A DNA stretch of 16,045 bases, taken from assembly GCA_038322185.1 (NCBI GenBank), contig JBBQFU010000208.1, positions 1 to 16,045 on the forward strand. The letters are read 5' to 3'. This document shows positions 5,153-5,802 of the stretch, piece after piece (the stretch's first letter is position 1; the number at the start of each line of letters is the position of its first letter). Source of the DNA: Haliangiales bacterium (GTDB lineage: Bacteria; Myxococcota_A; Polyangia; Haliangiales; Haliangiaceae). Both the position numbers and the translations under genes were made by a program. The notes below the pieces were generated by a model, which saw only the letters and a program-made list of their open reading frames with translations, was not told the DNA's origin and did no database searches.

Positions 5153-5784
5153 GCTTGCGGCCAGCGGGCCGCGAGCATCTCGACGAACACGTCGATCGCA
5201 CCGTGCGCTGCCGCGAGCCGTGCGTCGTCGGTGTCGACGAGCTGGAACGTGTGCTCGACGACGAACGTCGCCAGCCCGTGGCTCAGTGCCCATGCCGCGC
5301 GGAACGCATCCGCGATGTGCGGCTCGTCGATCGGTACCGTGCGACCGAGACCAGCGAAGTAGTGCTCGCGCGGCAGCGGTGGCAGCGGCTTGTCGCGCTG
5401 CTGCGCCGGAACGCGAGACGACAACAGCCTGAACAAATGCGGATGTGCGTGAGCCCAGCGGACATAGGCACGGCCACTCGCACGCAACGCATCGAGCGGC
5501 GCGCGCTGCGACTGGGCAGCGCCGATCTCTGTCCGGAACGCGGTCCAACCGCGCATCGCGACCTCGGCCAGAAGCGCCTCCTTGCTCGCGAAGTGCCGGT
5601 ACACCGCGGGCTGCGTCACGCCGAGCTGGGTCACAAGGGGGCGCAGTGACAGCTCGAGGTAGCCGTGCTTCTCGACCGCACGGTACGCGGCAATGACGAG
5701 GGCCTCGCGCAGGTCACCGTGGTGGAACGCCCCGGCCCGCTTCGCGCGCGGCCGAATTCGCTTGCGCTCCGTGACAGGCTCCAT
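5149..5784 (-). CDS. TetR/AcrR-family transcriptional regulator, about 211 aa.
   Basis: The N-terminal HTH reads REALVIAAYRAVEKHGYLELSLRPLVTQLGVTQPAVYRHFASKEALL. GC3 bias begins at MEPVTERKR, so the listed 310-aa ORF is over-extended antisense into the cupin gene. The stop overlaps the PGPGW stop (convergent, cTAA/TTAg). Confidence 0.85.
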   Translation of the reverse strand: MEPVTERKRIRPRAKRAGAFHHGDLREALVIAAYRAVEKHGYLELSLRPLVTQLGVTQPAVYRHFASKEALLAEVAMRGWTAFRTEIGAAQSQRAPLDALRASGRAYVRWAHAHPHLFRLLSSRVPAQQRDKPLPPLPREHYFAGLGRTVPIDEPHIADAFRAAWALSHGLATFVVEHTFQLVDTDDARLAAAHGAIDVFVEMLAARWPQA

Positions 5785-5802
5785 GTTATCATCGATAACA
5801 TG
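5782..5802. promoter_or_regulatory. Perfect 9-3-9 palindrome catgttatc-atc-gataacatg, AT-rich, spanning both divergent start codons. It is the candidate TetR operator and core promoter region.
   Basis: I read this directly from the sequence. The arms are exact reverse complements, and the outer CAT and ATG are the TetR (5782-5784, minus) and cupin (5800-5802) start codons. Confidence 0.6.

Follow-up and report, generated by a model that had tools for sequence, protein, structure and literature searches.

A conserved palindrome holding both start codons of a divergent tetR/cupin gene pair in Haliangiales: a predicted TetR operator and possible leaderless promoter

Introduction

How can two divergent genes be transcribed, translated and controlled when only 15 bp separate their start codons? 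The question is raised by a 16,045-nucleotide stretch of DNA from a Haliangiales bacterium (assembly GCA_038322185.1, contig JBBQFU010000208.1; the whole stretch is called the window below), in which a TetR-family regulator gene and a cupin gene begin at the two edges of a 21-bp palindrome. A preliminary description of this sequence had proposed that the palindrome is a TetR operator overlapping both translation starts, and that transcription is leaderless and begins within it or else comes from promoters embedded in the opposite gene. Comparison with related loci indicates that the palindrome is a functional site, very probably the operator of the adjacent TetR protein. Sequence features of the lineage further suggest, with less assurance, that the same few base pairs could serve as a bidirectional promoter for two leaderless mRNAs.

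The palindrome and its conservation

Direct reading of the junction and a repeat search both returned the perfect 9-3-9 inverted repeat that had been described, CATGTTATCATCGATAACATG (CATGTTATC-ATC-GATAACATG; Table 1), whose 9-bp arms can be extended imperfectly to arms of 16 nt. The 21-mer is as AT-rich as had been claimed, with 33% G+C against 63-71% in 500-nt segments of the window, and it is the sole perfect palindrome with arms of at least 9 bp and a loop of at most 10 nt in the 16 kb. In random sequence generated by a first-order Markov model, perfect palindromes with 9-bp arms appeared at a mean of 3.5 per 16 kb and were GC-rich; a palindrome with 60% A+T or more was obtained in none of 300 such simulations performed with the composition of the window. 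Because 9-bp-arm palindromes are not rare in random sequence, conservation of the site, and not its chance rarity, is the decisive argument. The preliminary description had suggested a search for further copies of GTTATC-N3-GATAAC. Within the window none was found, the lone match with three mismatches being at chance level, and no regulon beyond the tetR/cupin pair is visible there.

Table 1. Positions of the genes and sequence elements at the tetR/cupin junction
Feature	Position in window	Strand	Remarks
TetR-family regulator gene	5149..5784	-	211 aa + stop; ATG is the complement of 5782-5784; HTH at residues 32-75, TetR_C_33 at residues 100-191
Cupin_2 gene	5800..6348	+	182 aa + stop; ATG 5800-5802; PF07883, E = 8e-19
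9-3-9 palindrome	5782..5802	none	Family-conserved part ATGTTA-N7-TAACAT at 5783-5801
15-bp core GTTATC-ATC-GATAAC	5785..5799	none	Resembles the tet operator (TATC-N3-GATA; G+2, A+3, T+4); predicted site for one TetR dimer
Putative extended -10, cupin direction	5784..5792	+	TGtTATCAT; hexamer TATCAT at 5787-5792 (-13 to -8); matches the lineage TAnnnT peak; predicted start A5800
Putative mirror -10, tetR direction	5792..5800	-	TGtTATCGA; hexamer from 5797 to 5792; proposed from site symmetry; predicted start 5784; weaker, last base A

Related loci (designated L001, L004 and so on) were collected by TetR protein similarity alone, using genome and metagenome scans followed by exact look-ups. All of them come from uncultured metagenome-assembled genomes (MAGs) or from metagenomes, and the close relatives are all Myxococcota MAGs (Kofleriaceae, Haliangiaceae UBA2376, 'Myxococcales' and Polyangiaceae). 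All loci, to a TetR identity as low as about 37%, had a cupin homologue divergent from TetR. As the other neighbouring genes vary between loci, TetR and cupin form a two-gene module, the only conserved gene unit. Each of 27 loci contained the motif GTTA-N7-TAAC exactly once, without exception at the TetR/cupin junction, in a total of 193.6 kb for which about 0.4 chance matches are estimated from base composition. When 28 junctions were aligned on the site, the information content was limited to ATGTTA-N7-TAACAT and the flanks were unconserved. The A/T directly outside the 15-mer was retained even where it lies outside any start codon. These comparative data indicate that the palindrome is a functional site.

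The two start codons

The minus-strand gene encodes a protein of TetR-family architecture, in which an N-terminal TetR-type helix-turn-helix (HTH) domain (PF00440, E = 1.7e-11) is followed by a helical C-terminal ligand domain (TetR_C_33, PF13305, E = 4e-12), both exceeding the curated cut-offs. Its PDB matches were all TetR-family proteins, the best being TetRs from structural genomics. Searches of PDB and NCBIfam revealed no characterised close homologue of this TetR, and no NCBIfam equivalog was obtained for either it or the cupin protein. Exact look-ups of these two proteins and of protein P0001 gave no match, and the cluster concerned was nameless. In the interval from the upstream stop to the conserved FHH motif, a start scan left ATG 5784-5782 as the only candidate, and reading of the sequence revealed no in-frame ATG, GTG or TTG for tens of codons on either side of it. 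The resulting N-terminus, M-x5-RKRIRPR, begins at the same alignment column in nearly all of 51 orthologues (44-79% identity).

The translation of the plus-strand gene contains the metal-ligand pattern of a cupin domain, HVH...E (H53, H55, E60) and PGVRH (H94), and the metal site is apparently intact. The protein is weakly similar to the cupin domains of YxaG/quercetin 2,3-dioxygenase (E = 4e-8). Only two candidate starts were available, ATG 5800 and ATG 5854. The second was rejected, since the PPNLYF segment upstream of it is kept as protein in L001 and L004 and its Met is absent in the orthologues of L168, L001, L004 and L087. The start scans, the orthologue alignment and the conservation of PPNLYF identify the two outer triplets of the palindrome as true start codons, one for each gene, as the preliminary description had stated. 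The distance of 15 bp given there is also correct: the two ATGs are separated by GTTATCATCGATAAC (5785-5799), which lacks any GGAG-like element. No Shine-Dalgarno sequence is present and there is no space for one, and both starts are ATG; the statement that conventional 5' untranslated regions (UTRs) have no room here holds.

In some relatives, L165 and L168 for example, starts of the module appear to have been set wrongly by the gene callers. In L165, the source caller put the cupin start 15 nt inside the open reading frame (ORF) and not at the palindromic ATG (2970/2985, locus coordinates). In L168, the TetR start was set at a GTG that lies 48 nt downstream of the palindromic ATG (2953/3001, locus coordinates), with loss of the conserved N-terminal segment.

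Recognition of the site by TetR

The TetR protein of the window was aligned to TetR(D). The alignment is ungapped, with 37% identity across a 52-residue segment covering the HTH region, and Arg28, Gln38, Pro39, Tyr42 and His44 of TetR are all kept. Within the complex of TetR with tetO, hydrogen bonds join Arg28 and Gln38 to G+2 and A+3, and Tyr42 touches T+4 (PMC7102968); these three operator bases are found at the same positions in the window site. Across the family, the residue equivalent to Gln38 covaries with the +/-3 base pair. Gln is associated with A:T at +3 in 16 of 17 loci and Asp or Glu with C:G at +3 in 7 of 9 (right arm, the left arm showing the mirror change), while Arg or Gly at this position goes with a third base variant (Fisher p = 5e-5, phylogeny not corrected for).

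The junction thus holds an inverted repeat conserved beside the regulator gene, whose bases match or covary with residues of the recognition helix. From these sequence comparisons we consider it very probable that the palindrome is the operator of the adjacent TetR. The proposal of a TetR operator over both starts is supported by the restriction of the site to the junction, by its tetO-like core, by the kept contact residues and by the covariation. One could object that 9-bp-arm palindromes are common in random GC-rich sequence, and that the site may be a chance AT-rich palindrome or be the site of a different factor (a nucleoid protein or recombinase, for instance). We regard this as extremely improbable, given that the site occupies the homologous position in all 27 loci and occurs nowhere else in the 193.6 kb, that it covaries with the TetR recognition helix, that its tetO-like geometry is accompanied by the matching contact residues, and that no AT-rich equivalent arose in the 300 simulations.

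Promoter features and leaderless expression

Sequences upstream of ATG codons were surveyed for the called genes of the relatives' contigs and, separately, for in-frame ATGs of ORFs with a high G+C content at third codon positions (GC3), in 86 kb of the close clade and 99 kb of other loci. TAnnnT hexamers peaked at -12 to -14 before ATGs, with 17 hits in the close set, 12 of them outside the tetR/cupin module, against a background of about 0.6 per position (Poisson p = 3e-7). Examples are TAGAAT-ggaggc-ATG, TACACT-cgggtc-ATG and, within the window, two genes whose starts are at 1631(-) and 15299(-). This peak is the classic signature of leaderless genes, which the lineage evidently uses often; an mRNA counts as leaderless when its primary 5' end coincides with the start codon or precedes it by no more than 5 nt (PMC12754779). 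The cupin side of the palindrome, caTGtTATCAT-cgataac-ATG, coincides exactly with the peak of the lineage, its extended -10-like TG being supplied by the tetR start codon. The 'tatcat' pointed out in the preliminary description is this hexamer, present as stated; its numbering is to be corrected from -12 to -7 to -13 to -8 of the cupin A.

Folding showed that in a read-through RNA the AUG is paired in a hairpin of 9 bp (plus strand) or 11 bp (minus strand). The energy is -7.8 kcal/mol for the 21-mer core (z = -5.1), and -13.7 and -19.1 kcal/mol for the plus and minus strands in 46-nt contexts. RNAs starting at the AUG have an unstructured 5' end.

These observations suggest a model in which a single TetR dimer would read the A/T-flanked GTTATC-N3-GATAAC core through Arg48, Gln58 and Tyr62 (Arg28, Gln38 and Tyr42 of TetR), and in which the 19-21 bp of the operator would double as a minimal bidirectional promoter. 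Each half-site together with the spacer would form a -10-like hexamer, TAtcnn, preceded by a TG from the opposite start codon. Transcription would start about 7 nt downstream of the hexamer, at the A of each ATG, so that both mRNAs would be leaderless or carry a leader of at most 3 nt. As bound repressor would cover both back-to-back -10 regions and both start sites, it would repress the cupin gene as well as tetR, and a small ligand, probably related to the substrate of the cupin, would release it. The centre base pair of the window site would favour cupin (TATCAT) over tetR (TATCGA), the cupin direction being intrinsically the stronger. Taken as a whole, co-repression by a TetR dimer on a compact bidirectional leaderless promoter is the account towards which we lean, with limited confidence. 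Other hexamers were considered as -10 elements: TAACAT and (G/T)ATAAC were rejected, as the start would land inside the ORFs with no start codon downstream.

We then compared where the start codons lie in the different loci. Of 29 junctions, 19 have the TetR ATG immediately next to the 15-mer, and in 7 of the 29 the TetR start is 2-3 nt away (L001, L004, L162 and L164, which read ATC-ATG or ATC-GTG, and L008, L011 and L167). The most distant loci, L012 and L014, have no abutting TetR ATG: in L012 an ATG follows a AGGGAGGAGG stretch, 15 nt on, and L014 offered no assignable TetR start. Fourteen junctions have the cupin ATG directly against the 15-mer (the clade of the window, L087 and L168). 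At a minimum of 11 further junctions this ATG is 14-37 nt off, nearly always behind GGAG or GGAGG, so a transcription start at the edge of the palindrome would fit both layouts. The layouts read as increasing compaction, in which first the tetR ATG and then both ATGs came to lie at the palindrome edges.

A wider interpretation, which we advance tentatively, combines three elements: an all-in-one cassette of 19-21 bp comprising the operator, two -10 elements, two transcription starts and two start codons, with the centre pair setting the stronger direction; progressive UTR deletion; and pervasive leaderless expression in this Haliangiaceae/Kofleriaceae-like branch of the Myxococcota. The order of deletion would have led from genes that were both preceded by a Shine-Dalgarno sequence, through fusion of the tetR ATG, to fusion of both ATGs.

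Several observations weigh against the bidirectional leaderless promoter. On the tetR side of the window, TATCGA lacks the final T, and across the family the putative -10 ends in T at only about half of the sites in the cupin direction and at a minority of those in the tetR direction. No -35 or other flank motif is conserved on either side of the 28 aligned junctions, and the absence of any conserved flank block means that there is no -35. A sigma-70 consensus scan of 5500-6100 gave neither promoter nor terminator, although such a scan is uninformative for an extended -10/leaderless design. Shine-Dalgarno sequences are missing at some genes even within operons, in the window and in relatives, so their absence is no proof of leaderless mRNA. 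Contacts with the repressor could by themselves account for the conservation of TGTTA...TAACA. Finally, L001, L004, L162 and L164 have ATC in place of the tetR-side ATG of the palindrome, with an ATG or GTG start 3 nt further on, and in L161 (434-470) the nearest in-frame tetR start is a GTG 12 nt away, without a Shine-Dalgarno sequence. A strict leaderless model with a 5'-AUG therefore fails in some loci. The ATC-bearing subclade and L161 imply very short leaders or a non-canonical AUC start. The earlier suggestion of leaderless transcription from within the palindrome thus finds support on the cupin side, where TATCAT lies on the lineage peak and a leader would sequester the AUG in a hairpin, and fits poorly on the tetR side with its TATCGA.

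The asymmetry of the site could mean that the operator contains a leaderless promoter for cupin only, tetR being transcribed from a weak upstream promoter inside the cupin gene with a leader that lacks a Shine-Dalgarno sequence, and that the roles are swapped in other loci. The 15-mer has an odd length, so its centre base pair can give the final T of TAnnnT to one strand only, which in the window is the cupin strand. Of 27 sites, 19 have A or T at the centre (p = 8e-5), 12 favouring the cupin and 7 the tetR direction, and TAnnnT in the tetR direction is present in L006, L085 and L087. The displacement of the tetR start by 3-12 nt in L001, L004, L161, L162 and L164, and the genes within operons that do without a Shine-Dalgarno sequence, would also fit a one-sided promoter. 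We nevertheless find it somewhat unlikely. A read-through leader would lock the tetR AUG in the 11-bp stem, no promoter-like block is conserved upstream, and the abutting tetR ATG, found also in distant loci with a displaced cupin start, is hard to explain without an mRNA 5' end at that place.

It may also be envisaged that both promoters lie in the opposite genes and produce leaders that overlap in antisense, TetR acting as a roadblock to elongation and the hairpin modulating initiation without Shine-Dalgarno sequences. The lack of a canonical promoter in or around the site in the sigma-70 scan and the stability of the RNA hairpin (z = -5.1) agree with this, and the symmetric base changes among loci would keep an RNA stem as well. 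However, these changes follow the recognition-helix residue, as readout by a protein predicts, and the flanks show no conservation beyond coding. A hairpin over each AUG without a Shine-Dalgarno sequence should nearly abolish translation of both genes, and the Shine-Dalgarno sequences of distant cupin genes are just 14-37 nt distant from it, which agrees with a start at the palindrome edge. The TAnnnT-N6-8-ATG signature of the lineage provides a simpler account, and we consider the roadblock quite unlikely.

TAnnnT hexamers 12-14 nt before an ATG without a Shine-Dalgarno sequence were also seen at individual genes unrelated to the module. The gene starting at 1631(-) in the window reads gaTACACTcgccgcgcATG, and similar cases occur in L162 at 1594(+), 7985(+), 8902(-), 9800(-) and 4334(-), in L164 at 732(+), in L166 at 436(+), in L004 at 929(+) and 7377(+), and in L168 at 2180(-). 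L164 in addition carries a perfect 16-bp palindrome, CTGATCGATCGATCAG, at 7224-7255, before a second TetR gene (6513-7223, minus strand), 13 nt from its ATG and without a Shine-Dalgarno sequence. Operators very near starts that lack Shine-Dalgarno sequences may be a habit of these genomes.

Comparison with known systems

The closest parallel for the site itself is the tet system (Tn10/class D, structure 1QPI), which shares with the window a 15-bp palindromic operator with a TATC-N3-GATA core, the base-contacting residues described above and, as we infer here, a repressor gene that controls itself and diverges from its target, the operator lying across the promoters (tetR/tetA). The two systems differ in the C-terminal domain of the regulator (TetR_C_33 in the window), in the target (a cupin enzyme, whereas tetA encodes an efflux pump), in the number of operators (one, against two in tet) and in bases +6 and +7. 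In Tn10 the start codons lie outside the operator, whereas in the window both are within it.

A leaderless TetR-family autorepressor has been described in the acuR-acuI-dddL operon of Rhodobacter sphaeroides, where 5'-RACE showed that the mRNA begins exactly at the AUG of AcuR (PMC3017554). As in the window, there is no Shine-Dalgarno sequence and the arrangement is kept across taxa; an inverted repeat covers the promoter (-10/-35) just before the ATG, comparable to the predicted operator of the window. The AcuR operator, TAATAGAC-n6-GTCTATTA, ends upstream of the ATG and contains no start codon (PMC3017554). The system is unidirectional, unlike that of the window, with the regulator as first gene of the operon, and its inducer, acrylate, is known. 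Lambda cI transcribed from PRM and Tn1721 tetR are cited in the same paper as leaderless regulator mRNAs. There too a repressor mRNA begins at the AUG, the operator is beside the start site and expression is low, but a single leaderless gene is concerned and not a divergent pair embedded in a palindrome.

Bidirectional promoters with symmetric -10 elements, including PacrA/acrR, have start sites 7-25 bp apart, with a preferred spacing of 18 bp at which the -10 hexamers overlap by 5 bp (bioRxiv 10.1101/2020.01.31.928960; PMC12825309). They resemble the model proposed here in their divergent starts around a shared or adjacent -10 within pseudo-symmetric sequence, to which RNA polymerase binds in one orientation at a time, and acrR/acrA likewise pairs a TetR-family autorepressor with its target. 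In the window the predicted spacing would be 16 bp and the hexamers would meet at the centre base pair, and the known transcripts, unlike those predicted here, are leadered. The shared -10 geometry of the 18-bp Escherichia coli promoters was tried on the window and rejected as a poor fit: the reverse hexamer would be GATGAT, placing the start in tetR codon 1-2, and the reciprocal -10 positions 2/6 of that configuration are not found, TATCAT and TATCGA having only the centre base pair in common.

In Bacillus subtilis, the TetR-family repressors QdoR/LmrA control the cupin quercetin dioxygenase QdoI (YxaF-YxaG). The window likewise has a TetR-family regulator beside a metal-cupin enzyme. Its cupin, by contrast, is a monocupin of 182 aa whose C-terminal part is unrelated. 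The layouts of operator and promoter in the two systems bear no relation to each other, and a link to flavonoids is unsupported.

In the literature on myxobacteria, we found one suggested case of a leaderless gene, pexR (PMC12754779). We found no description of an operator that holds both start codons of a divergent leaderless pair, in a literature coverage that is incomplete; Actinobacteria may well have analogues. Every component of the proposed module is a known mechanism, here packed unusually tightly, and current understanding is not overturned. The differences from the known systems are that both start codons are operator bases, that both sides would be free of UTRs and that the putative -10 hexamers meet at the centre pair.

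If the model is correct, the 21 bp would form about the smallest conceivable regulated divergent switch, one without untranslated regions, and could serve high-GC hosts as a compact repressible bidirectional promoter. The centre T being available to one strand only, the module would be a clear natural test of how promoter symmetry determines directionality. The covariation of Gln/A+3 and Asp/Glu/C+3 constitutes a ready specificity series for TetR engineering. The TAnnnT-N6-8-ATG signature, which suggests wide use of leaderless mRNAs in this Myxococcota branch, may outweigh the palindrome in usefulness and bears on the annotation of gene starts in these MAGs.

Neighbouring genes

Downstream of cupin, 6468-8912(+) encodes an 814-aa protein with major-vault-protein domains (MVP_shoulder, Vault_3 and Band_7). 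It overlaps by 31 nt with an RNase II-family (RNB) gene at 8882-10372(+), which is followed by a serpin gene at 10418-11914(+); these three genes have no link to the TetR/cupin module in other loci. On the other side of the module, and unrelated to the palindrome, are genes for a PGPGW membrane protein (4733-5152(+)), a TerB-domain protein (4374-4685(+)), an RluA-type pseudouridine synthase with a long N-terminal extension (2733-4250(-)), an FHA-domain protein (1650-2693(-)) and an Lnb_N-domain protein (456-1631(-)). A frameshift suspected at 12339-13830(-) was rejected, the region consisting of two adjoining genes in different frames.

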